DNA of 64,000 nt. Origin: an uncultured Mycoplasmatota bacterium (GTDB lineage Bacteria; Bacillota_I; Bacilli_A; RF39; UBA660). The notes below the pieces were generated by a model. The model ran no database searches. It had not been told where the DNA came from and saw nothing but the letters and a program-made list of their open reading frames with translations. A program made the position numbers and the translations under genes. Positions 10,365 through 61,674 of this stretch are shown here, in pieces (positions within the stretch are counted from its first letter, which is position 1; the number at the start of each line of letters is the position of its first letter). The DNA is taken from assembly GCA_948434005.1 (NCBI GenBank), contig CAOJEH010000001.1, positions 219,880 through 283,879 of the forward strand, written 5' to 3'.

Positions 10365-13127
10365 TTACTGAACAGTATAATTATGGGTTTTAGAACCACT
10401 TTTTCCATTATATAAATATTGATATGTAACACTACATCCAGATGCTTTTGTAGTTGTAAATACGTTTCCATCATGACAGTCACTTCCTGAATGAACAGGA
10501 GTTGCTGTTGAATTTGTTAAAGTACCATTAACTATAAGATTACAACTTGGAATAGGCGAATTAACACTTTGAACTCCTTCAGGACATGATAATTCAATTT
10601 CATCCACTTTAGCTGGTTCCTTTGGTGTATATGTTGCAGGATCACTTTGTGCACCACTATAGCTTTTATATGTTGCAACTACTTTATATGTGGTGTATGG
10701 GTTACTAGTTTCAAATGAGTATGATGTAGATTCAGTAAAGTCTATTAATGTACTTCCTTGATATATATTATAAATAAGTTTACCATATTGCTCATCATCT
10801 GGAAGCCTTTTTACTGCATTCCAAGATAGAGAAACTTTATTGCCATTTACAGTAGCTTTAAATCCACTAGGGGTGCTTAGTTTATTTGATTCTTCTTGAC
10901 CTCCATTTTTAGGTTCGTGTCCTTTTCTAAATAATTCGTAACTTCCACCAATGGAAGCCTTAACTACACTATCAGGCATTTTAAAGTCACTTATATTCTT
11001 TTCAAAAACTCCATTAGCTATAGCTAGGAATAATTTATCTTTTTGAATAGTCGCAGGTGTTTGTCTTAAACAATATGTACTATTTATGAAGTCATAGCCA
11101 TACCACATACCGATAACAGTTTTATTAGAAAATCCTACTACCCATGAATCTCTAATAGCATCTCCAGGCAAGTTATATCTACTCATAGTAGCATCATCGT
11201 AGTTTGTAGTACCAGTTTTTGCTGCTACATTGGAATGTTTCCCACCTGTTATAACAACATCTTTTAGCATGCTTGCAATCATATATGCAGTAGCATCACT
11301 CATAACCTGCTTAGGATTAGATTTATGTTCTTCAGTTTTTCCTGTATCTCTAAATACTATTTTACTAACTGAATATGGCTCGTTATAATAACCACCATTT
11401 GAGAATGCGGCATAAGCAGCACTCATTTTTAATGGTGATACTCCTGTAAAGGCTCCAATTGAGTGGGCTTCATGTATCTTACCGTTAGAAACTTCAGGTT
11501 CAATACCAAGAGAAGTAACAAAATCTTGGATTTTAGAATTATCAACCATTTGGAATGCTTTCAAAGCAGGAATATTACGTGATGCGGATAATGCTCTTCT
11601 AGTAGTTATAGAACCATAGTATCCACCATCCCAGTTTTTAATAGAACGACCATTTGAATAAGAATAAGGACTATCTTCAAATAATTTATAATTATCATCA
11701 CCATTTTGATATCCATAAGTAGACCAGTTATTATATTCTATACCAGGACCATAATCAAATAGCGGTTTTGCTGTAGATCCAGGTTGACGATTAAGTTGAG
11801 TAGCATAGTTATAAGTATTAGCACCATTCTTATTACGCCCACCACCAATTGCTAAGATTTTACCTGTTCCAGAATCTAGTACTGATACACCAGTTTGAAC
11901 TTTATCATTTATAAAGTTATATGATTTACCATTCATTACATCATTAACTGCATTTTGTTTTGATTTATCCATATTAGTATAGATAAGAAGCGGAGCCATA
12001 TAAGCATTAACACCATATTTATCTTGAACCTCTTCAACTACAGTATCAATATAAGCTTGATATTCAGATGTAGTAGCAACTGAATGTTCAGTAGTTAATG
12101 AATCTACTGGGATATTTTTTGCCATCTCTTCTTGCTCTTTTGTGATATATCCATGTTTTCTCATTAAATATAATACAGTTCCACGTCTTGCAGTAGCATT
12201 TTTTGGATTAGCTGTAGGCCTATAATAGTTAGGGGATTTAAACATTCCAGCTAATATGGAAGCTTCACTCAAGTTTAAATCGTTAACATCTTTACCAAAA
12301 TATTCTCTTGCAGCTTCTTGTACCCCATATATATTACCACCTAAGAAATGATTGTTAACATAAAATTCAATAATCTCTTTCTTAGAATAATTCTTCTCTA
12401 ATTTAAATATAGCTAAATATATATCTGTAAATTTACGAACAATACCTTTAACACCAGAAGCTTCAGTTGAAGTGAAACTATTTTTAATAACTTGCATTGA
12501 TAAGGTAGATGCTCCACCAGCATCGGAATGCCCAGTTAATTGACCAAGCGATGCCTTAAGAAATCTTGGAGCATCAAAACCATTATGTTGGAAAAATCTA
12601 GAATCCTCTGTTGCAATAATTGCATCAACAAGTACTTGAGGAAGTTCTTTATATTCAACTTTTTCTCTCATCTCACTACCAAGTTTAGCAATTTGATTAC
12701 CATCTTTATCATATATTAAAGTTACCTCATTTTTATATAGTTTACTAGTATCAAATTTAGGAGCATTTATAGTTATATATACCATAAATAATCCAAATAA
12801 AACAAGTCCAATAATACCAAGAATCAATATAATTATTAATATAGCATTAACAATTTTCCTTTTCCTTTTATTGTGATTTACTTTATCAAGTAATTTAGCA
12901 ATTCCATAAATTATAGCACAACACAGTGCTGTAAATATTGTAAATATTAATCCCATATTAATAAAACATAAGACTAATAATATTATAACTGCTATTGATA
13001 CTCCTATTTTAGCTCCTGTAGGCATTTTTGAAGGGATAGGAATTCTCCCTTTTATTTTTTTAGATGAACGTCTTCTTACACTACCTGTATTATTTGTATT
13101 AGTTCTTCTTTTCTTAACATTTTTCAT
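10365..13127 (-). CDS. ponA: Bifunctional class A penicillin-binding protein PBP1A (glycosyltransferase + transpeptidase) with a long Cys-rich C-terminal extension
   Basis: GT51 motifs EDSRFFQHNGFD and RKFTDIYLAIFKLEK. Transpeptidase motifs STAKP (SxxK) and KTGT. One N-terminal TM segment. Overlaps the recU stop/start, the conserved recU-ponA pair. Confidence 0.85.
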   Translation of the reverse strand: MKNVKKRRTNTNNTGSVRRRSSKKIKGRIPIPSKMPTGAKIGVSIAVIILLVLCFINMGLIFTIFTALCCAIIYGIAKLLDKVNHNKRKRKIVNAILIIILILGIIGLVLFGLFMVYITINAPKFDTSKLYKNEVTLIYDKDGNQIAKLGSEMREKVEYKELPQVLVDAIIATEDSRFFQHNGFDAPRFLKASLGQLTGHSDAGGASTLSMQVIKNSFTSTEASGVKGIVRKFTDIYLAIFKLEKNYSKKEIIEFYVNNHFLGGNIYGVQEAAREYFGKDVNDLNLSEASILAGMFKSPNYYRPTANPKNATARRGTVLYLMRKHGYITKEQEEMAKNIPVDSLTTEHSVATTSEYQAYIDTVVEEVQDKYGVNAYMAPLLIYTNMDKSKQNAVNDVMNGKSYNFINDKVQTGVSVLDSGTGKILAIGGGRNKNGANTYNYATQLNRQPGSTAKPLFDYGPGIEYNNWSTYGYQNGDDNYKLFEDSPYSYSNGRSIKNWDGGYYGSITTRRALSASRNIPALKAFQMVDNSKIQDFVTSLGIEPEVSNGKIHEAHSIGAFTGVSPLKMSAAYAAFSNGGYYNEPYSVSKIVFRDTGKTEEHKSNPKQVMSDATAYMIASMLKDVVITGGKHSNVAAKTGTTNYDDATMSRYNLPGDAIRDSWVVGFSNKTVIGMWYGYDFINSTYCLRQTPATIQKDKLFLAIANGVFEKNISDFKMPDSVVKASIGGSYELFRKGHEPKNGGQEESNKLSTPSGFKATVNGNKVSLSWNAVKRLPDDEQYGKLIYNIYQGSTLIDFTESTSYSFETSNPYTTYKVVATYKSYSGAQSDPATYTPKEPAKVDEIELSCPEGVQSVNSPIPSCNLIVNGTLTNSTATPVHSGSDCHDGNVFTTTKASGCSVTYQYLYNGKSGSKTHNYTVQ

Positions 13128-14885: not shown

Positions 14886-15212
14886 ATGTATCAAAATAAG
14901 ATAGAGCTTTCTCCACAAGATATTTTAGAAAAAGAATTCAAAATAGATACACGTGGATATCGCTTAAAAGAAGTAGATCAGTTTTTAGATATTATAATTA
15001 ATGACTATGAGCAATTCTATACAATGATAAACGATTTAGAGAAAGAAAAAGCAGATTTATTGGGAGAGATGATGAAGTTAAAACAGGAACTTCGTAAAGT
15101 AAAAACTAGTGCAGAGATTGCAAAAAATAATGATACTCCTGAAATTACAAATGTAGATTTATTACGTAGACTTTCAAATCTTGAAAAAATGGTATATGGA
15201 AAAGAAGATTAA
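14886..15212 (+). CDS. gpsB: Cell-cycle protein GpsB (DivIVA-domain)
   Basis: IELSPQDILEKEFKIDTRGYRLKEVDQFLDIIINDYEQ is the DivIVA N-terminal domain, with a C-terminal coiled-coil. The start was set to the ATG at 14886 (GAGGTTGGTGA RBS). Confidence 0.8.
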   Translation: MYQNKIELSPQDILEKEFKIDTRGYRLKEVDQFLDIIINDYEQFYTMINDLEKEKADLLGEMMKLKQELRKVKTSAEIAKNNDTPEITNVDLLRRLSNLEKMVYGKED

Positions 15213-15213
15213 T

Positions 15214-15560
15214 ACTTAAGACAAACGCTGTATTCTAATAGAATATTGAGGAAAGTCCATGCTCACACGTACCTGTGATGGTCGTAGTGTTCGTGCTTAG
15301 GGAAAAAATAACCTAAGGTAGAGAAATCTAACGGCAGAGCAAAGACCTAAGTCGATTGATATGGTCTTCTCTTGAAAAGTGCCGCAGTGACGATTTTTTA
15401 GGAAACTAAAAGGTGAAACGTGGTAAACCCCGCGAGTGAGAAACCCAAATTATGGTAGGGGAGCTTTGATTAGGGAATAAGAACCGAGTCAGGGACCGAG
15501 TAGTCGGTAGATAAATGTTTGTCACCTCGTTGTGAGGTACAGAACATGGCTTATTAAGTA
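15214..15560 (+). ncRNA. rnpB: RNase P RNA (bacterial type B, Firmicutes)
   Basis: Contains the universally conserved GAGGAAAGTCCATGCTC (P4 5' strand) and ACAGAACATGGCTTA (P4 3' strand) elements, plus AGGGAAA...GGTGAAACGTGGTAAACCCC motifs. The 5' and 3' ends can pair (ACTTAAG / CTTATTAAGT). It lies directly downstream of gpsB, exactly as in B. subtilis. Confidence 0.85.
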
Positions 15561-50354: not shown

Positions 50355-51512
50355 ATGAAGAAAAACAAAATTTTAACAATCGCAATTTTATTAGTTACAA
50401 TACTATTTGGAACTTTAGATGTAAATGCTGCTACTACTTATGCAGAAAAGTTACCTGATACTGTAACAAGAGGAGCGATTACATATAGTTATACAACAGG
50501 AACAAATGCTACAGACGGTAAATCTAATTATCCATTTTATAATGAAGATACAACAGGAACTTATTTATTATATTGTTCTGATAGAAATATTCCAAATTAT
50601 GAACATAATGATGTATTAAAGAAAAGTTCAGAAAGATTACCATATGGATATGTTACGATTTTAAAAGGGACATATGAAATTGATTCTATATATGGTTATA
50701 TACTTGATGGTTCAATGAAGGAATATACAGATAAGGAACAAATGAAGAAAATGACAAATACATGGATAACACAAATGGCTCTATGGGGATATCAAGGAAC
50801 AATAACTGATGCAGAAATTAATCAAGATTCATTAAGATATAAAGTTAATGAATCCGCTGGTAATATAAATCTTGCTAATAAAGAGGTTCGTTTATACGGA
50901 ACTCCAGATGCTGAATTAGGAGCTAAAGATACATGGAATAAATATGTAGCTTCGGTTATCCAAAAAGCCAAATCAGCAAAAGATCCAGCCGATGCAAAAC
51001 TAAATGTAACTGCAGATAAAGAAGTTACTTGGACAGAGTCTGATAATATAGCAAAAAGTAACTTAATAAAAGTTGAATCAGAATATGGAGTTGATGCAAC
51101 ATTATCTAAGTTCTCTATATCTTTGGAAAATGCTCCAGAAGGAACAAAAGTTTATACAGAAAATGGAAAAGAAGTTACAAATACTACTAGTATAACAGGT
51201 GGTACAAAATTATATGTAACTATAGATAAAAATAAATTAGATAAAAGCAAGGAATATAATTTTAAATTGAATGCTACAGGAACTATAACTTATGATGCAG
51301 CTTATAAGTATACTAATGATAGCGGTAAACAACCATCAGTTTTAATAGGACCAGAAACAAAAGAAATACAAGGAGTATTGGATTTTAAATTAGTTCCAGA
51401 TACTGCAAGTTCTCTTTCTAAGTCTGTCTACTATATAGGATTTATAATTCTACTATGTGGAGTAGGAATGATATATGCAAATGTTAGACCAAAAAGACAA
51501 GAAGAAGAGTAA
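50355..51512 (+). CDS. Sortase-anchored surface protein with a putative thioester (TQxA) adhesin domain
   Basis: Signal peptide (MKKNKILTIAILLVTILFGTLDVNA). The TQMALW motif matches the TQxA(I/V/L)W thioester-domain signature, with a candidate partner Cys in LLYCSD. The C-terminal sorting signal is VPDTAS, then a hydrophobic stretch and KRQEEE (LPDTA-like). Confidence 0.55.
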   Translation: MKKNKILTIAILLVTILFGTLDVNAATTYAEKLPDTVTRGAITYSYTTGTNATDGKSNYPFYNEDTTGTYLLYCSDRNIPNYEHNDVLKKSSERLPYGYVTILKGTYEIDSIYGYILDGSMKEYTDKEQMKKMTNTWITQMALWGYQGTITDAEINQDSLRYKVNESAGNINLANKEVRLYGTPDAELGAKDTWNKYVASVIQKAKSAKDPADAKLNVTADKEVTWTESDNIAKSNLIKVESEYGVDATLSKFSISLENAPEGTKVYTENGKEVTNTTSITGGTKLYVTIDKNKLDKSKEYNFKLNATGTITYDAAYKYTNDSGKQPSVLIGPETKEIQGVLDFKLVPDTASSLSKSVYYIGFIILLCGVGMIYANVRPKRQEEE

Positions 51513-52152
51513 AAACAATAAAAAAATAACAAAGAGTCAATTATGTTTATTTGGCTCTTTGCTTGTAATTATAGGAATATCACTATTATCAATGGATCAT
51601 ATAAAAGAACTAAAAAAACAGGTTTTTTCAGATATGCAACTATCTTTTATGAATGAAGATAATGTTAATGATATAGTACAAGATGTTCCTAAAGTAGAAG
51701 AAGTAGATAAAAAGACAGAAGAAAAAAAAGAAGAACCTAAAAAGCAGATAGATTTTAGTAAGTATAATGGAATAATAGAAATACCTAAGATAGGTTTAAA
51801 AAGAGGCTTCTATAATTTTGGACATAAATACAACAACATAAAGTATAATGTTACTGTTATTGGTGGATCAACAATGCCTGATGTAGTAAATGGCAACCTA
51901 ATTTTAGCAGCACATTCAGGAGATGCCTATGTTTCCTATTTTGCTTATTTATATAAATTAGGTATAGGTGACTATGTATATATTACTTATAACGGGATTA
52001 TATACAAATATCAAATAGTTAATATTTATAATGTAGCTAAAACAGGTTCAGTAACAATCAATAGAAATGAAGCCAAAACTACATTAACTATGATAACATG
52101 CACTAAGAATAGCGATACTGAACAAACAGTATATATTTCAGAATTAGTATAA
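51475..52152 (+). CDS. Sortase (transpeptidase), likely a class D/YhcS-like housekeeping-type enzyme for the adjacent substrate
   Basis: N-terminal TM anchor, catalytic His in LILAAHSG, the TLxTC motif TLTMITCT and a conserved Arg downstream. Overlaps the end of the substrate gene. Confidence 0.75.
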   Translation: MQMLDQKDKKKSKNNKKITKSQLCLFGSLLVIIGISLLSMDHIKELKKQVFSDMQLSFMNEDNVNDIVQDVPKVEEVDKKTEEKKEEPKKQIDFSKYNGIIEIPKIGLKRGFYNFGHKYNNIKYNVTVIGGSTMPDVVNGNLILAAHSGDAYVSYFAYLYKLGIGDYVYITYNGIIYKYQIVNIYNVAKTGSVTINRNEAKTTLTMITCTKNSDTEQTVYISELV

Positions 52153-52174
52153 GAGTAAATAGGAGGTAAAGACA

Positions 52175-52747
52175 ATGGAAATGACCATAATAGATAAAGT
52201 TGCTTTAATATTTAAATACATATTCTCATCTTTTATGGGGATAGAACTATTTCTACTAAGCTTAATTTTATTCTTATTCACATTTTTAAATATTAAAAAG
52301 AATAATAAAAAAGTTAAAATAGTATCTGCTATACTATGTATAGGCTTTTTAATAGGAATTATTTTGACATATAGATCATATGCAGTAGAAAGTATAGATT
52401 CGTTTATAAAAGCTGTACTAAGTTATCTATATTTCCCATCTATGGTAGTATACTTCTTTATAATTTTATTTGTAACAATAGATATAATAATAACTATATT
52501 TTCTAATAAAATGCCAAGAACTAAGAAGATAGTAAACTCTAGTGTATTAAGCATCTTATATTTTTGTTTTATGGCCGTAATATCTATCGCCCTAACAAAT
52601 GATATAAACTTATCATCAACAGTAAGCTTATATACAAATGATACATTACTTTCATTTATACAAATGAGTAATTTACTATTTGCATTTTGGATTGAATTTA
52701 CAATCCTATATTACTTTTATAAATTTTTACAAAAGAAGTTTGACTAA
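52175..52747 (+). CDS. Hypothetical membrane protein (190 aa)
   Basis: Five hydrophobic segments. Confidence 0.4.
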   Translation: MEMTIIDKVALIFKYIFSSFMGIELFLLSLILFLFTFLNIKKNNKKVKIVSAILCIGFLIGIILTYRSYAVESIDSFIKAVLSYLYFPSMVVYFFIILFVTIDIIITIFSNKMPRTKKIVNSSVLSILYFCFMAVISIALTNDINLSSTVSLYTNDTLLSFIQMSNLLFAFWIEFTILYYFYKFLQKKFD

Positions 52748-55873: not shown

Positions 55874-56044
55874 AATAATACAAAATATAGTTTATAATCT
55901 TATGATATTATTTCGAAATGAAGTAATATCATTTTAAATGTCAAATTGTTTTTCTAAAATTAGTAAAATATAATAAAAGAGTTGTAAAAATAATTAATAG
56001 GCTTTATTATATTACTATAAGATATTGTAAATAAGGAGGAAAGT

Positions 56045-56635
56045 ATGAAAGAAAAAAGAAATATTATAGTATTTACTATAGCCATTGCAATTATTGCATC
56101 AATAACAGCAGTAGGAATTGCCTATGCTTCATTTTCACAAACATTAAAAATTAATGGTAATGCTACAGTAAGGACAGCAACATGGAAAGTAAAATTTTCA
56201 AATTTAACTAATGCTACATTAACAGGAACAGCACAAGAAATTACAGCACCAACAATTACTACAAATGATACTAAAATAGGGGATTATTCAGTATCTCTAA
56301 CTAAGCCTGGAGATTCTGTTAGCTATACCTTTGATGTTGTTAATGAGGGAACATTTGATGCAAAAGTTTCTAGTGTCACAATTCCTACACCAACATGCAC
56401 AGGAACAGGAGATAATGCAACAGTTGATGGTAATAATGTTTGTAATAATATTAGTTATACACTAACTTATTCAGATGGAACTAGTGTACAAGAATCAGAT
56501 ACTTTAAATAGTAATGAAACTAAAACAATGAAATTAACATTAAAATACGCTGATGGAATTACATCTGAACAACTACCAAAAAATGATGTAGCTATTAGTG
56601 GCTTAGAAACTACAATTATATATGGTCAATCATAG
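56045..56635 (+). CDS. Secreted protein with a SipW-cognate-like signal peptide (TasA/CalY-class leader), 196 aa, Thr-rich
   Basis: Leader MKEKRNIIVFTIAIAIIASITAVGIAYASFSQTLK: a basic stretch, a long hydrophobic stretch, then G-x-A-Y-A-S-F-S. Compare the TasA ...GGGTWAAFND and CalY ...GGGTFAFFSD cleavage regions. Lies immediately upstream of sipW. Confidence 0.5.
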   Translation: MKEKRNIIVFTIAIAIIASITAVGIAYASFSQTLKINGNATVRTATWKVKFSNLTNATLTGTAQEITAPTITTNDTKIGDYSVSLTKPGDSVSYTFDVVNEGTFDAKVSSVTIPTPTCTGTGDNATVDGNNVCNNISYTLTYSDGTSVQESDTLNSNETKTMKLTLKYADGITSEQLPKNDVAISGLETTIIYGQS

Positions 56636-56766
56636 TATCTAAAATATCGGATACTTATGAAAATAAAAGTGTAATGATTCTGATAACATAATAATTTGTA
56701 TGTATTAATATATGAATAGTTGCACTTTTATTTTATTTTTTAGAAAGATAAAAAGTGGGTGAATAG

Positions 56767-57906
56767 ATGAAAAAAAGTGAAATTAAATTGATATCATTAG
56801 AGATAATATCTATTTTCCTATTAATTATGAATATTTTTACAAAATACTTTATCAATCAGTATATAATAATTATTATACTTTTACTAATGTTTACTATTTC
56901 TTTATTTATTTCTAGCTTCGAAAAAGAAAAAATTTTAGATAAAAAAAGTATAATAAAAAATACGCTTATTTATACTATATCATATTTGATTTTAATATAT
57001 GGAATGGGTATATTTACAGGATATATTAAAACTTCCTATAGTTTAACCTTAGTTGGTATAATAAAGAATATTTTTCCAGTAATTATTTTAATATTAATAG
57101 AGGAATTACTTAGATATCATATTTGTAAAAAAGCAGAAAATAAAAAAATAATAATTATATTATCTATTTTATCGTTTGTACTAATTGATATATCACTTTC
57201 TATTGATTTATACAATTTTAATGATAAATCTAAAATTATAGAATTAATTACAATTACTATATTACCTAGTATATTTAAAAATATTATGTTATCATTTTTT
57301 TCCTATAAATATGGATATAAGGTATGTATAGTTTACCAGTTGATAACAAATATATATTTATATATTATGCCAATATTTCCTAATTTATCTATATATTTAG
57401 AATCTATATTAAAAATATTATTACCTATATTTGTTGGTACACTTATTTATCTTAGATTCAAGAAAATAACTATAAAAAGTTTTAGAAATAACTCTAGACT
57501 CTTAAAGATAATAACAGGTATAATTATAGTAATGACTATAATTACTATAGTTTTATATAGTAATCTATTTCCCTATACAATAGCGGTTATAGGAAGTGGT
57601 TCAATGAATCCTAATTTAAAAAGAGGAGATATGATTTTAATAGATAAAACATATCATGAAAAAACAAATAAGTTGAAAGTTGGTCAAGTATTAGTCTTTA
57701 AAATAAAAGATACTATATATACACATAGAATTGTAAAAATAGATAAAATAAATGGAAAATATTCTATTTTAACAAAAGGAGATAGAAAAGGACAAGCTAT
57801 AGATACTTGGACAGTTACAGAAGATGATATTATAGGAATAACAAAACTAAAAATTCCTATGATAGGATATCCAAGCGTTTGGTTAAAAGATATATTGGAG
57901 GGATAA
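56767..57906 (+). CDS. sipW: Archaeal/ER-type signal peptidase I (SipW family) fused to an N-terminal ~190-aa polytopic membrane domain
   Basis: The C-terminal 180 aa carry the SipW core GSGSMNPNLKRGDMILIDK...HRIV...KGD, with Ser/His catalytic residues of SPase I, S26B type. The N-terminal half has about 6 TM segments that ordinary SipW (~190 aa) does not have. Confidence 0.7.
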   Translation: MKKSEIKLISLEIISIFLLIMNIFTKYFINQYIIIIILLLMFTISLFISSFEKEKILDKKSIIKNTLIYTISYLILIYGMGIFTGYIKTSYSLTLVGIIKNIFPVIILILIEELLRYHICKKAENKKIIIILSILSFVLIDISLSIDLYNFNDKSKIIELITITILPSIFKNIMLSFFSYKYGYKVCIVYQLITNIYLYIMPIFPNLSIYLESILKILLPIFVGTLIYLRFKKITIKSFRNNSRLLKIITGIIIVMTIITIVLYSNLFPYTIAVIGSGSMNPNLKRGDMILIDKTYHEKTNKLKVGQVLVFKIKDTIYTHRIVKIDKINGKYSILTKGDRKGQAIDTWTVTEDDIIGITKLKIPMIGYPSVWLKDILEG

Positions 57907-57908
57907 AA

Positions 57909-59063
57909 ATGAGTAAAGGGAAAATACAATATCAAAGTAAAGATAAATCATATAAAGTAAAAACAGTAAATAAAAAGAAAATATTAAGAAAAGGAACAGT
58001 ATTAAAATTATTGATTATACCTTGTTTGCTAATTCTACTGTTATCATTATTACTACTTAATAGTTCTATCGAAATTAAGGGTAAATCAGCAAATGTTGGT
58101 TATAATGAAATAGGAGATGTTGATTACAAAGTATATCTAAAGGATAATAATTATTATGATTCTAAATATTTAGATAGCGGTATGCAGTATGTAGCAAGTC
58201 TAATTAGTAGTGTTAATACAAAATTTAATTATGAAGTACATTCTGAAAAAAATCTGGATTATAAATATACATATAACATTGTAGGTGATTTAGTTATATA
58301 TGATATTAATGATTCATCTAAAATATTATATACTAAACAGTATAATTTACTAGATTCTAAAACAGAAAATTTAAGTTCAAATAATATTGTTATAAATGAA
58401 GATCTAGATATTGATTATGATGAGTATAATAATTATGTTAACTCTTATAAAAGAGATTATGGTATTAGTGCTGGTAGTAAATTAATTGTAACTATGAATA
58501 TCAATGTAAACGGAAGTAATAATAAAATACAAAAAAAATTAAATCATAAGAATAAATTACAAATTGAAATACCATTATCAGAACAAACACTTAATATTAA
58601 TATTGCATCAGATAAGATAAATAATAAAGAAAGATTATTTACTTTAACTGGTCCAGTAATAACAAATAAATTCATTTTTGTTATAGGATTACTTTTACTA
58701 ATAATATCACTTATCAGTTTAATTATTTCTATATGGAAATTTACTGCTTATAAAAAGGAAAATATATATATTATAACATTAAATAAATTTTTAAGAGATT
58801 ATGATCGTTTGATAGTAAATGCAACAGATAGTATTAGTGAGAAAAAATTTGAAAGAGTAATACCGGTAAGTAGTTTTACAGAATTAGTTGATGCAGCTGA
58901 AAATAATAGAACATCCATAATATTCTTTGAAGCAATAGCAGGTGAAAAGAGTTTCTTTTTAGTAATTAATGATAAAACATTATATAAGTATAGATTAACT
59001 AAAGCTTATCTAGAAGGAAATCCTGATGCAGAAGAATTAAAAGATACAAAAGGAAAAAAATAA
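57909..59063 (+). CDS. Hypothetical bitopic membrane protein of the SipW locus (385 aa)
   Basis: Start set at MSKGKIQ (GGAGGG RBS). TM1 at ~aa 30-50, a large N/D/Y-rich extracytoplasmic domain, TM2 (FIFVIGLLLLIISLISLIISIW), then a ~120-aa cytoplasmic C-domain. Confidence 0.45.
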   Translation: MSKGKIQYQSKDKSYKVKTVNKKKILRKGTVLKLLIIPCLLILLLSLLLLNSSIEIKGKSANVGYNEIGDVDYKVYLKDNNYYDSKYLDSGMQYVASLISSVNTKFNYEVHSEKNLDYKYTYNIVGDLVIYDINDSSKILYTKQYNLLDSKTENLSSNNIVINEDLDIDYDEYNNYVNSYKRDYGISAGSKLIVTMNINVNGSNNKIQKKLNHKNKLQIEIPLSEQTLNINIASDKINNKERLFTLTGPVITNKFIFVIGLLLLIISLISLIISIWKFTAYKKENIYIITLNKFLRDYDRLIVNATDSISEKKFERVIPVSSFTELVDAAENNRTSIIFFEAIAGEKSFFLVINDKTLYKYRLTKAYLEGNPDAEELKDTKGKK

Positions 59064-59656
59064 TGAAAGTAATTGATTATATTAAAAATAGGAAATTATT
59101 ATTTTCAATACTTGGATTATTTCTTGTTATATCCTTTGTATCTATTTCCTATGCATCTATGAATACATCTATGATGATAACAGGTGATGCATATGTTAGA
59201 GTGGATGAAGAAATAAGGGTAGTTGGAATTAAATTTTTAAATGTAGAAAATGATGCTTATGAGACATATAATGCTAAGTATTCAAAGAATTCTACTAATA
59301 TGTATATAACACTGCCCAATATAAATTCTAAAATTACTTATCAAGTAGAAATAGAGAATAAATCAGATCATGTATATTTAGTTAGTGATATTATAGGAGA
59401 ACTAATTAATCCCAATATTACATATACAGTAGAAAATGGTATAGTAAAGGTAGTACCAAAGAAATCCAAGATAACATTAAATATTACTTTTCATTATAAG
59501 GATGATAATTTACCGGCTGATATTACACAAATTTCTACAATAAATTATAAATTTGAAAGGCCTACTGCATCTCATTTAGAATTTGATAATTCTAATGTAA
59601 ATACAAACTGTATAGATGTTCAATGTGCACTAGATGAATTATATGAAATATTTTAG
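59063..59656 (+). CDS. Secreted protein with a SipW-cognate-like signal peptide, 197 aa
   Basis: Leader MKVIDYIKNRKLLFSILGLFLVISFVSISYASMNTSM, hydrophobic then S-Y-A-S-M. Similar in size to the 56045 protein. Start overlaps the previous stop (TAATG). Confidence 0.45.
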   Translation: MKVIDYIKNRKLLFSILGLFLVISFVSISYASMNTSMMITGDAYVRVDEEIRVVGIKFLNVENDAYETYNAKYSKNSTNMYITLPNINSKITYQVEIENKSDHVYLVSDIIGELINPNITYTVENGIVKVVPKKSKITLNITFHYKDDNLPADITQISTINYKFERPTASHLEFDNSNVNTNCIDVQCALDELYEIF

Positions 59657-59670
59657 AAAGAGTGATAACT

Positions 59671-60627
59671 ATGCATAGAAAAAATTTTTCCTTTTTAATT
59701 ATAGGATTGACAATAGGAATGTTAATATCAGGTATAGGAGTATATGCAACAACTATTCTTTCTAGTAGTGAAGTATCCTATGATAACAGTAAATCAAATT
59801 CGTTATCTAATAATGTTCAAGGTTCAATAGAAGAATTATATAAAAAGTCAAGTAATTGTACAACAGGATCTTGTTCGCTAACACAGTCAAACTTTTATGT
59901 AGAATATACATATAATCAAACAAGTGGGGCAAGTAACTATTGTGTAACCGGAGATGAAGCAACTTGTACTAGAACAGACTGTTATACTTCATCAGCAAAA
60001 ACTTGTCCTCCAGGAACTATTATTGATTATATTGTAAGTGGAACAAATACTAGAGTAAGATTTCATGTTATAAAAGATAAAGGAAAAACTATGACAATGC
60101 AATCACAAAAAAATACAATTTATAATTTGGCATGGGATTCATCAGGCGTCAATACAAAAGGACCAACAACAATATTACCACAATTAGAAAAAGCAACTAG
60201 TAGTTGGACTAATGTAGAAGACCAAACTTATACAATGGGGGAAACAGTATTTAAAGATAATGCTTTTACGGGATGTAGTAGTTATAATTCATGTACAGAA
60301 AATAAATATACATTAGGTAGTAAAACAGTAAAAGCAAGAATGATAACAGTGCAAGAAGCAAACACTTTTGGGTGTACCACTTCTAATAGCTCTTGCCCTA
60401 TATGGATGTATAATTATACATATGGTGCTATGAGCTATGGTGGGACAGTAGATGATAATATAGAAAGAACTATGCATAATTATGGTTATTGGACAATGTC
60501 CTCATATCAATTAGATACTATACATGCATGGTATATTGCCAAAAATGGACATATATATGCTAATTATAGTACAGGAACCAATCTTCTTTTATATGGTGCA
60601 AGAGCAGTAATAGAGGTGTCTAAATAA
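59671..60627 (+). CDS. Cys-rich secreted protein, tandem paralog A (constant N-domain + variable C-domain)
   Basis: Start at MHRKNF (AGAGTGA RBS). Leader ...GIGVYATTILSSSEV. Mature region is rich in Cys, Thr, Ser and Tyr (CTTGSC, CVTGDEATCTRTDC, CPPGT...). C-terminus is GARAVIEVSK. Confidence 0.5.
   Translation: MHRKNFSFLIIGLTIGMLISGIGVYATTILSSSEVSYDNSKSNSLSNNVQGSIEELYKKSSNCTTGSCSLTQSNFYVEYTYNQTSGASNYCVTGDEATCTRTDCYTSSAKTCPPGTIIDYIVSGTNTRVRFHVIKDKGKTMTMQSQKNTIYNLAWDSSGVNTKGPTTILPQLEKATSSWTNVEDQTYTMGETVFKDNAFTGCSSYNSCTENKYTLGSKTVKARMITVQEANTFGCTTSNSSCPIWMYNYTYGAMSYGGTVDDNIERTMHNYGYWTMSSYQLDTIHAWYIAKNGHIYANYSTGTNLLLYGARAVIEVSK
59757..60072 (+). repeat. 316-bp segment 100% identical to 60822..61137 (copy 1)
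   Basis: Checked base-by-base: identical from tctttctagtagtgaag... to ...agatttcatgttata. Identity falls to ~75-80% immediately on both sides. Confidence 0.95.
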
Positions 60628-60664
60628 TTGCTAGAGTACAATGGACCTCGATCCTTTTTTTGAA

Positions 60665-60694
60665 TTGACAAAAGCCTCTGGGGGGGGGTATGAT
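60665..60694 (+). promoter_or_regulatory. Sigma-A-type promoter TTGACA-N18-TATGAT with a G9 homopolymer in the spacer (candidate phase-variation switch)
   Basis: TTGACA sits at 60665-60670 and TATGAT at 60689-60694. The spacer aaagcctctgggggggggg holds 9 consecutive G at 60680-60688. The ATG of paralog B is 33 nt downstream, after a GGAGTGG RBS. Confidence 0.5.
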
Positions 60695-60726
60695 AAAAGT
60701 ATAAAATAAAAGTGCGGAGTGGTATA

Positions 60727-61674
60727 ATGAAGAAATTTATAAAGAAAAACTACAAAATAGTAATAGCATTTATATTAGGAGGAATAGTATTTGGAGGTAT
60801 AGGAGTATATGCATCAACTAATCTTTCTAGTAGTGAAGTATCCTATGATAACAGTAAATCAAATTCGTTATCTAATAATGTTCAAGGTTCAATAGAAGAA
60901 TTATATAAAAAGTCAAGTAATTGTACAACAGGATCTTGTTCGCTAACACAGTCAAACTTTTATGTAGAATATACATATAATCAAACAAGTGGGGCAAGTA
61001 ACTATTGTGTAACCGGAGATGAAGCAACTTGTACTAGAACAGACTGTTATACTTCATCAGCAAAAACTTGTCCTCCAGGAACTATTATTGATTATATTGT
61101 AAGTGGAACAAATACTAGAGTAAGATTTCATGTTATACAGGATAAGGGAAAGACTATTACAATGCAGACACAAAAAAATATAATCAATAATATAGCTTGG
61201 TATGCGGGAGATATTAATAGTTATGGCCCTACCAAGGTACTACCAATGTTAGAAAATGCAACATCAAGTTGGAGTAATGTAAATACTCAAACCTATACTA
61301 TAGGAAATAGTTTTTTGTCAGGATGTAGTGAATATAATTCATGTACTACTAATAAATATACATTAGCCCAAAGAACAGCAAAGGCTAGACTGGCTACAGT
61401 GCAAGAATTAGCTAACGTGGGGTGTACTAGGGCTACTGGTTCTTGTCCTAAATGGGTTTACAATTATTTATATAGCTCTACCGATTTTGGAGGTTCAGTT
61501 TCTGATACTACCACAGATGGAGGAGACGGAAGATATGGTTATTGGACAATGAATGCTTATACTGGTAGTTCTGATTTTGTTTGGCATATTGGTCGGCAAG
61601 GGCGTCTTTGGTATACAATTTCTCCTACATATCCCGGTATTGGTGCTAGAGCAGTAGTAGAGGTTTCTAAATAA
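60727..61674 (+). CDS. Cys-rich secreted protein, tandem paralog B
   Basis: Start at MKKFIKK (GGAGTGG RBS). Leader ...GGIGVYASTNLSSSEV. Residues 33-137 are identical to paralog A (encoded by the identical 316 bp). The C-domain is ~55% identical and ends GARAVVEVSK. Confidence 0.5.
   Translation: MKKFIKKNYKIVIAFILGGIVFGGIGVYASTNLSSSEVSYDNSKSNSLSNNVQGSIEELYKKSSNCTTGSCSLTQSNFYVEYTYNQTSGASNYCVTGDEATCTRTDCYTSSAKTCPPGTIIDYIVSGTNTRVRFHVIQDKGKTITMQTQKNIINNIAWYAGDINSYGPTKVLPMLENATSSWSNVNTQTYTIGNSFLSGCSEYNSCTTNKYTLAQRTAKARLATVQELANVGCTRATGSCPKWVYNYLYSSTDFGGSVSDTTTDGGDGRYGYWTMNAYTGSSDFVWHIGRQGRLWYTISPTYPGIGARAVVEVSK
60822..61137 (+). repeat. 316-bp segment 100% identical to 59757..60072 (copy 2)
   Basis: Same as copy 1, at an offset of 1065 bp. 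Confidence 0.95.

Follow-up and report, generated by a model that had tools for sequence, protein, structure and literature searches.

The window analysed here, a 64,000-nucleotide stretch of contig CAOJEH010000001.1 from an uncultured gut Bacilli bacterium, contains at positions 56045-61674 a real operon of six genes, which we designate P1 to P6. We propose that this operon encodes a chaperone-free surface fibre of the donor-strand type, belonging to the TasA superfamily and to the kind of locus described for the AbpX filaments and the haloarchaeal Tat-fimbriae (Tafi), and we put the probability of this at roughly 0.7. An earlier reading made from the DNA letters alone (below, the sequence-only reading) had suggested a peptidase-dependent fibre or adhesin system with variable components. 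That general interpretation stands, but the family to which it assigned the system, that of TasA, SipW and leaders of the TIGR04088 class, does not. The six open reading frames are all present, contiguous and on the + strand, as had been listed, and their junctions are short or overlapping (Table 1).

On its sequence features, P2 is a signal peptidase I of the archaeal or endoplasmic reticulum (ER) type, that is, a Ser/His and not a Ser/Lys enzyme. Its C-terminal 130 amino acids (aa) score 69.4 bits against TIGR02228, the archaeal-type signal peptidase I model (cutoff 51.85), and there is a further match to PF10502 (27 bits, cutoff 22.9). Across 37 aligned sequences, consisting of the window P2 and 36 homologues, Ser279 (in GSGSM), His320-Arg321, Asp339 and Asp346 do not vary. 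The earlier observation that a dedicated archaeal/ER-type peptidase is encoded among proteins with a common special leader is thus upheld. The description of this peptidase as SipW-type holds for its archaeal/ER character only: the score against the Bacillus SipW equivalog NF046067 is 56.4 bits, where the cutoff is 190, and ahead of the anchor helix and catalytic domain there is an additional region of about 245 aa, for which hydropathy indicates some eight hydrophobic helices. The extra domain is kept in every homologue, with E113, R116, Y117, D141 and several Pro, Gly and Tyr residues invariant, and has no Pfam match, whether scanned alone or within the whole protein. Since invariant polar residues (N101, E113, R116, Y117 and D141; domain at 56767-57501) lie inside or near the helices, a function beyond anchoring is suggested, for example in substrate recognition or assembly. 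A CPBP/CAAX-protease assignment, based on the string EELLRYH, was dropped, as only E113, R116 and Y117 are conserved and no His. Two apparent strain variants of P2/P3 are assembly artefacts: a 677-aa "fusion" of P2 and P3 in contig L010 (11665-11674) is due to a scaffold gap of ten N, and a 472-aa variant of P2 in L011 (11720-12819) to a chimeric contig.

P3 is a DUF5305 protein (PF17231, E 2.3e-20, 73.4 bits against a cutoff of 29), and in relatives it always follows P2. It has two predicted membrane helices and is a two-pass protein, not the single-pass (bitopic) one that it was first taken for. The TTG start, which would give 394 aa, is probably unused, since gene calls on near-identical contigs give 384 aa. 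DUF5305 is the TafG protein of haloarchaeal Tat-fimbriae, where it is found beside the signal peptidase TafD (PMC11821415, PMC12337348). P3 would be a TafG-like accessory of the signal peptidase, a role proposed for DUF5305 in PMC11821415 and in the AbpX preprint (bioRxiv 10.64898/2026.01.04.697558).

The proteins P1, P4, P5 and P6 all start with a leader in which a hydrophobic stretch of 19-23 residues ends in Y-A-[ST] and positions -3 and -1 are taken by small residues. The common end can be written [GS]-I-x(1,2)-Y-A-[ST], and makes a good -3/-1 site for signal peptidase I. It is conserved across the homologues of each family, and is therefore not a matter of chance. The slightly longer pattern first proposed for these leaders fits P5 and P6 exactly (GIGVYA[TS]), but P1 (GIAYAS) and P4 (SISYAS) are one residue shorter. 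The suggestion that they belong to the SipW-cognate class of TasA and CalY has to be abandoned: none of the four matches TIGR04088 at E<=10, against 38 bits for B. subtilis TasA as positive control (a 34-position model, cutoff 19 bits), and no window leader matches TIGR04089 or TIGR04090. The N-regions (MKEKRN, MKVIDYIKNRK, MHRKN and MKKFIKKNYK) contain no RR, and are therefore not twin-arginine (Tat) signals.

P1 is the probable major fibre subunit, AbpX-like and probably a remote member of the TasA superfamily. As described earlier it is a Thr-rich protein of 196 aa (19% Thr in the mature part), and Cys118 and Cys133 are conserved. The AbpX sequence of Pyrodictium abyssi was taken from the supplement of a preprint of January 2026 (PDB 9SJ2, 9RHP; bioRxiv 10.64898/2026.01.04.697558). 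The P1 profile aligns with it at full length (hhalign 89.7%, E 1.9e-6, 160 columns), and BLASTP gives 31% identity over 105 aa (E 2e-5), covering the cleavage site and the PG..N.GT strand. The junctions are a close match, reading ...TAIGLTYA/QWSETLSLSATIS in AbpX and ...TAVGIAYA/SFSQTLKINGNATV in P1 (the slash marks the cut), so that the cleavage and donor-strand motifs GLTYA/QWSETLSL and GIAYA/SFSQTLKI can be laid side by side. Mature position 2 of P1 is Phe, in agreement with the AbpX type. Against a mixed set of TasA-like N-domains the P1 profile gives an hhalign value of 96.7% (E 4e-10). Of 74 P1 homologues, 44 match PF12389 (TasA/camelysin) at E<=0.1, far more than match any other family; all 44 stay below the Pfam threshold, which indicates a remote relationship only. 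AlphaFold2 predicts P1 with a local confidence score (pLDDT) of 91 as a leader helix and a β-sandwich, with a detached segment of low confidence at aa 31-47. The top matches of P1 in the PDB as found by Foldseek are 7ueg and 8aur (E about 1e-2); a bundling pilin (ABP) and the TasA fibre are ranked first, with probabilities of 0.98 and 0.92, and the ABP pilin, the TasA fibre, the 0406 thread and the Tafi pilin are among the best and longest structure matches. By sequence alone, the profile of the P1 family matches no entry of the PDB. The family is large, with 6,959 clusters at 50% identity for E<=1e-3 and 456 for E<=1e-30. Many members have long C-terminal extensions, and the family has no Pfam or NCBIfam name. 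The gene is followed by a long hairpin and U-run (RNA fold -26.5 kcal/mol, z -3.9, none of 200 shuffles equally stable). From its sequence this looks like a terminator or attenuator, which would yield an excess of P1 over the products of the downstream genes.

P4 is a pilin-like paralogue of P1. The two families align by hhalign at 98.5% (E 1.7e-15) over 159 columns, which take in the leader, the donor-strand-like segment and the sandwich. In other genomes, the gene after DUF5305 encodes a P4-like N-domain followed by 200 to 2,100 aa of surface-binding modules, including Flg_new (Listeria-Bacteroides repeats), InlB B-repeat, DUF6273, ALK/LTK glycine-rich and DUF285/LRR. Because P4 carries C-terminal adhesin modules in these relatives, it would be the adaptor or tip-base subunit of the fibre.

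The P4 of the window is short and ends in a motif which links it to the genes that follow. Short P4 proteins (195-203 aa) are 38-85% identical to the P4-like N-half of P0026, a natural fusion, in the A2 alignment, and all end 2-5 residues past ...[FY]DNS.....C..VQCALDELY. The same motif, YDNS…VQ.A.DELY, that forms the C-terminal end of short P4 is the N-terminal start of every head protein. In all five loci examined (Table 1), genes encoding a leader, this motif and a head come directly after short P4. The heads differ: those in L027 and L031 are FGE-sulfatase-like, L069 has two in tandem (765 and 781 aa) and L071 has one Cys-rich head of 308 aa. In L018, P0018 and P0026, P4 and head are in one chain, with a single copy of the motif as the joint. 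In the A2 alignment, P0026 shares 83% identity with P4 over its N-half, and 47-52% with P5 and P6 over its C-half. In the P0026 model the head has a pLDDT of 96-98, and the motif forms a coil and helix (aa 186-202) between the domains, with a pLDDT of 74-83. The motif common to both, the order of the genes and the single-chain fusions in relatives are evidence that P4 and the heads would work together. They might be joined by docking through the motif, or by strand and helix complementation. An active cassette switch by recombination at the motif is unlikely: by hand count, the motif DNA of P4 and P5 is about 79% identical over 33 nt, and no exact run exceeds 10 nt. A likeness of the YDNS…NVQ…DEL motif to the N-termini of phage tail fibres is unsupported, PHROGs scans of heads, P4 and P1 being empty.

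P5 and P6 have the same layout of leader, 30-aa motif (V.YDNS.S....NVQG.IEELY) and 10-Cys domain. Their description as Cys-rich tandem paralogues with constant and variable parts is correct, since each mature part has 10 Cys, and an identical 5' tract is followed by sequence of about 60% identity. The 318-aa form of P5, from the ATG 14 nt after the P4 stop codon, differs by 3 residues (99% identity) from the cluster representative P0001, and P5 has 227 homologues. The modelling predicts C-type-lectin-like heads, with the fold that is used by Legionella Lcl and found in the IgA peptidase of Thomasclavelia ramosa (PMC12237041, PMC11162425). To judge from the nature of the targets, it is probably the head of the P0026 model, not its pilin domain, that gives the two top structure matches. 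P5 and P6 have no match to PF07603 or any other Pfam family (PF19789 is matched in relatives only), a PDB sequence-profile search with the head family found nothing, and there is no sequence-level match to the C-terminal domain of Lcl (DUF1566) or the N-terminal domain of the T. ramosa protein. The heads differ from Lcl, which has no disulfides, in their 10 Cys, and their proposed partner is a pilin, to which they would be joined or otherwise linked, where Lcl has a collagen stalk and the T. ramosa protein a protease. In other genomes the same head is found behind at least a dozen different TasA-like N-domains; 5 of the 16 such fused N-domains tested reach E<=0.01 to PF12389.

The conservation of the operon was analysed in 51 species-level loci, found by the P1 profile. 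P1 (in one to five copies), P2 and P3 are contiguous and co-oriented in 36 of these; one further locus has frameshifted copies, and five of the remainder end within 2 kb. A P4-like gene comes directly after P3 in 14 of the 51. The variable part consists of heads of the P5/P6 type, which occur in close relatives only. The claim that the cluster is conserved as a unit is therefore borne out for its core, P1-P2-P3. In some relatives (L069 1563-3987; L014/L015 13279-17549) the homologous operon is flanked by a tyrosine integrase, AAA_14/DUF4143 genes or a serine recombinase, and there it may lie on mobile islands.

The head genes carry clear signs of sequence exchange, as the sequence-only reading had noted. 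Positions 59735-60072 in P5 are identical to 60800-61137 in P6 (about 335 bp at 100% DNA identity), after which identity falls to about 60%. A strain contig, L001, is 99.8% identical to the window, and 11 of the 12 differences in 5 kb lie in 59847-60010. At all 11 of these sites the window P5 carries the base of the window P6, which marks a recent P6-to-P5 conversion tract of at least 164 bp. Only two differences separate the window from contig L006 over 6 kb, A/G at 59903 and at 60968. These are the same position of P5 and P6 (offset 1065), a classic mark of concerted evolution. Apart from L006, every near-identical metagenome contig breaks off within the P5/P6 repeat.

P6 has a promoter-like site of its own, which is the best + strand promoter match of the region and has a G9 tract, the only G/C run of at least 7 in the 64 kb, inside its spacer. 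The tract is G9 in the L001/L007 and L006 contigs and G10 in four other near-identical strain contigs. In L002 (about 10995-11045), a contig of the G10 type, 33 bp are missing immediately past the tract, so that the G-run adjoins TATAATG in the start region of P6. Repeat tracts in the -35/-10 spacers of adhesin promoters are known from Haemophilus hif and Neisseria opc, and here too the spacer tract differs between strains. As in pilin and adhesin systems with conversion, tandem paralogues exchange sequence, although here the conversion homogenises the constant 5' third, whereas the known systems import variable cassettes. The phase-variable promoter of the sequence-only reading is thus supported as regards the length polymorphism in the promoter spacer, while switching itself would be a probable consequence of it; antigenic variation, which had been suggested for the locus, should likewise be worded as something that these features may produce.

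These results suggest the following mechanism. P1, P4, P5 and P6 would be exported by Sec and held in the membrane by their long hydrophobic leaders. P2, probably together with P3, would cut them after the Y-A motif. In P1 this would free the N-terminal strand (SFSQTLKINGNATV), which could then enter the β-sandwich of a neighbour, so that P1 polymerises. P4, which has a leader, strand and fold of the P1 type, would be the tip or adaptor subunit. P5 and P6 would be alternative C-type-lectin-like binding heads, and would belong with P4 because they start with the motif at which P4 ends, and form one polypeptide with it in relatives. P6 has its own promoter-like site with a poly-G spacer, so that its expression is probably switchable, and P5 and P6 would exchange sequence by gene conversion. 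The four leader proteins are not equivalent cargo: P1 and P4 are pilin-type paralogues, and P5 and P6 are heads that begin with an N-terminal module of another kind. Taken together, P1 and P4 look like the material of a fibre and P5 and P6 like its adhesin heads, which is in line with the original idea of a fibre and adhesin system.

Several observations weigh against this interpretation. P1 passes no family threshold in Pfam and NCBIfam scans. Its match to PF12389 (TasA/camelysin), which the sequence-only reading had put forward as a check, is 14.9 bits (E 0.024), below the gathering threshold of 22.5. The comparison by hhalign with B. subtilis TasA alone gives 9%, with just the PGD..F..N.G strand aligned (22 columns), and the hydrophobic leader contributes part of the P1 hhalign score. 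P1 is less acidic than AbpX (10% Asp+Glu, pI 4.5). At mature position 4, AbpX has an acidic residue that is important for Ca-mediated strand complementation (bioRxiv 10.64898/2026.01.04.697558); P1 has Gln, and no residue predominates at this position among the 74 aligned sequences. The G9/G10 difference comes from metagenome assemblies and could partly be homopolymer error. Finally, head genes also occur singly among housekeeping genes, for example in the truB/rpsO gap or after obg. On balance, P1 is probably a distant member of the TasA superfamily, with AbpX closest to it.

The architecture of the locus matches the published descriptions of Tafi and AbpX loci. The latter, in archaea and in Bacillota/Chloroflexota, are reported to encode tip proteins and AbpX-like minor subunits alongside a ten-helix signal peptidase I, called "structurally distinct", and a DUF5305 accessory (bioRxiv 10.64898/2026.01.04.697558). 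The window operon likewise has a dedicated polytopic TIGR02228-type signal peptidase I with DUF5305, and an AbpX-like minor subunit and putative tip proteins; its probable major subunit is also of about 165 aa when mature, has two Cys and the PG..N.GT strand, and resembles AbpX at the end of the leader and in the putative donor strand. It differs in that P2 has about nine predicted helices (8 + 1, by hydropathy) and not ten, that the similarity of P1 to AbpX is remote, and that the heads are encoded separately, each with its own leader and the common junction motif. The operon also has a poly-G promoter tract and shows gene conversion, but contains no LPXTG/SLH anchor, kinase or c-di-GMP genes. 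The AbpX hosts listed are thermophiles and Clostridia, whereas the host here is of an uncultured gut Bacilli lineage. In Tafi, a signal peptidase I and DUF5305 pair likewise adjoins small TasA-like pilins and a tip/adaptor set, namely the pilins TafA/E and the tip protein TafC. TafD is required for processing of TafA and for fibre formation, and both peptidase dependence and strand donation have been shown experimentally (PMC11821415, PMC12337348). Tafi subunits use Tat signals, however, TafD has four helices and a domain order different from that of P2, and the window operon has no TafB regulator or TafF-type anchor. Since this class of locus has been outlined for Tafi (2023–25; PMC11821415, PMC12337348) and for AbpX (in January 2026), the system can no longer be called undescribed. 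We did not find described in the literature a gut Bacilli clade of such loci, separately exported lectin-like heads with a junction motif common to an adaptor pilin, or, for such loci, a poly-G promoter or conversion between heads.

The alternative that survives best, though we consider it unlikely, is that P1 (with P4) forms a fibre while P5 and P6 are independent lectin-like proteins, secreted or on the surface, which only share the peptidase or stay anchored by uncleaved leaders, and lie here because of co-regulation. The orphan head genes between housekeeping genes in other genomes (Table 1) fit this, and because of them the heads need not be fibre-bound; in addition, the donor-strand motif F/W-S-x-T-L-x-I, which P1, P4 and AbpX have in common, is missing from the N-terminal segment of the heads, and one homologue, P0112, has an ordinary Sec signal. 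It is harder to reconcile with the covalent fusion of the same head to P4-type and TasA-type pilin domains in many relatives, with the motif at the end of short P4 and head genes next to it in 5/5 loci, and with a gap between P4 and P5 of just 14 nt. Of the single head-family genes, some have leader and motif and others a camelysin-type N-domain. The head-family proteins P0032, P0064 and P0067 each list the same longest contig (386,659 bp), and could be paralogues encoded by a single contig. It seems that the heads make up a dispersed multigene family.

A more distant alternative is that there is no fibre at all, and that P1 and P4 are monomeric β-sandwich proteins, secreted or associated with cell wall or spore, for which P2 and P3 form a dedicated processing module. 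TasA was first found as a spore-associated protein, and sporulation genes lie just downstream in a near-identical contig. We regard this as very unlikely, in view of the strongly conserved segment past the cleavage site which matches the AbpX donor strand. This segment is modelled as unstructured, detached and of low confidence, as expected for a strand used in trans. Moreover, all characterised loci with signal peptidase I, DUF5305 and TasA-like proteins make filaments (PMC11821415, PMC12337348 and the AbpX preprint).

Slightly less probable still, and as a matter of family membership largely refuted, is the original assignment, that is, a biofilm-matrix operon of the Bacillus tapA-sipW-tasA type (or like B. 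cereus calY or C. perfringens bsaA), with a true SipW and cargo bearing TIGR04088 leaders. The B. subtilis operon likewise has a dedicated archaeal-type Ser/His peptidase for its fibre subunits, donor-strand assembly of a jelly-roll subunit and a second protein that starts or caps the fibre (PMC9674648, PMC10151520). The catalytic domain of P2 is common with SipW (NF046067, E 2.7e-15), P1 has its weak PF12389 match, and the PGD..F..N.G strand occurs in TasA also. Yet SipW is small and lacks a polytopic domain, where P2 has about 245 extra aa with 8 helices and stays far below the equivalog cutoff (56 vs 190). The TIGR04088, TIGR04089 and TIGR04090 models are unmatched by the window leaders and PF12389 is below threshold, so that the TasA thresholds are not reached by leader or by mature protein; there is no TapA-like gene; TasA fibres have no lectin-like heads; and P1 aligns at full length with AbpX, but with TasA over only 22 columns. 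DUF5305 is not known to be part of the Bacillus operon. A type IV or sortase-assembled pilus, which long hydrophobic leaders and a sortase gene 4 kb upstream (51475-52152) might bring to mind, is refuted by sequence features: the predicted cut is after the hydrophobic stretch and not before it, the leaders have no G/F-x-x-x-E prepilin motif and the operon no prepilin peptidase, ATPase or platform genes, while P1 and P4-P6 lack a C-terminal anchor or LPXTG-type sorting signal (C-termini ...IIYGQS, ...DELYEIF and ...EVSK), and uvdE, vanY and dacF-like genes lie between the operon and the sortase cluster, which is absent beside the homologous operon in relatives.

Within the proposed fibre, a further and tentative idea, which we think more likely wrong than right, is that of a split tip adhesin: P4 would be a universal socket, into which separately exported heads plug by means of the YDNS…VQ.A.DELY strand-helix motif. 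If so, the heads would be P5, P6 and the products of orphan head genes elsewhere in the genome, and one fibre could display interchangeable lectin-like heads, with the choice of head set by the poly-G promoter switch and the head sequences reshuffled by gene conversion. The eight-helix domain of P2 (E113, R116 and D141 invariant) could then join in assembly and not only in anchoring. This would amount to a non-covalent swapping of adhesins after export, which has not been described for TasA-type, chaperone-usher or sortase pili.

Table 1. Features of the P1-P6 operon in the window, and related genes in other loci (a slash within a sequence marks the predicted cut)
Feature	Position	Strand	Description
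Weak promoter-like site upstream of P1	55982-56010	+	Promoter scan, 9/12 matches; consensus only
Ribosome-binding site AAGGAGG, strong	56033-56039	+	5 nt 5' of P1 start; direct sequence reading
P1	56045-56635	+	196 aa; leader aa 1-28, predicted cut AYA/SFSQ; putative donor strand aa 29-47; β-sandwich aa 49-195
Long hairpin then U-run	56660-56745	+	Between P1 and P2; inverted repeat I8
P2	56767-57906	+	379 aa; N-terminal polytopic domain aa 1-245 (about 8 helices); anchor helix about 245-272; archaeal/ER-type catalytic domain
P3	57909-59063	+	384 aa from ATG; helix aa 31-49, outside domain, helix aa 255-273, cytoplasmic C-terminal domain (hydropathy)
P4	59063-59656	+	197 aa; start overlaps P3 stop; leader, predicted cut SYA/SMN, donor-strand-like segment, β-sandwich; ends with motif LEFDNSNVNTNCIDVQCALDELYEIF
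P5	59671-60627	+	318 aa from ATG (321 aa from GTG at 59662); leader, predicted cut VYA/TT, motif SSSEVSYDNSKSNSLSNNVQGSIEELYKK, then 10-Cys enlarged C-type-lectin-like head (predicted)
P6 promoter-like site	60665-60694	+	TTGACA, 18-nt spacer, TATGAT; 11/12
Poly-G tract	60680-60688	+	G9; inside P6 promoter spacer
P6	60727-61674	+	315 aa from ATG with GGAG site upstream (320 aa from GTG at 60712); P5-type leader, motif and first third; C-terminal two thirds diverged (about 60% DNA identity)
Short P4 then head gene(s)			Window, L027, L031, L069, L071
Single head-family gene	L005 10001-10993		
Single head-family gene	L073 10001-10969		
Single head-family gene	L074 10001-11650		

The 64 kb of the window have a G+C content of about 25%, and the only Rfam family at gathering score is a class B RNase P RNA at 15212-15558 (279 bits), a type which is typical of Bacillota. 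The near-identical contigs are from gut-type metagenomes and have sporulation genes further on. In L006 (18316-20591), which continues the same genome past the end of the window, a STAS-domain gene, a sigma factor of the sigma-70 family, spoVAC and spoVAD are found within 5 kb, and because of these the low-G+C gut bacterium is probably a spore former. The closest species-level genomes are metagenome-assembled genomes of uncultured "Bacilli bacterium" from mouse, human, goat and rabbit gut, as well as Clostridium sp. CAG:594 and CAG:433 and Candidatus Aphodocola. The sortase (PF04203) upstream belongs to a separate surface-protein cluster (50355-52747), which also has a 190-aa polytopic membrane protein and a 385-aa secreted protein. 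The latter combines an ordinary Sec signal with a sorting signal at its C-terminus (…KLVPDTASS, hydrophobic helix, basic tail) and is without a Pfam match. This cluster is kept in near-identical strains, and in relatives it does not adjoin the fibre operon.

Experiments have established fibres of the TasA type in Bacillus biofilms and, more recently, in extremophilic archaea. The present results indicate that uncultured small-genome Bacilli of animal guts commonly have an archaeal-style version, in which a polytopic signal peptidase is combined with DUF5305 and AbpX-like subunits. In the operon described here the fibre seems to have become a platform for adhesins, with a tip bearing lectin-like heads whose diversity would arise through domain swapping and gene conversion, and probably through phase variation as well. 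The heads are concrete candidates for attachment of gut bacteria to host glycans or mucus, and for evasion of antibodies. With six genes in 5.6 kb, the operon is also a tractable one in which to study the roles of the polytopic peptidase domain and of DUF5305.

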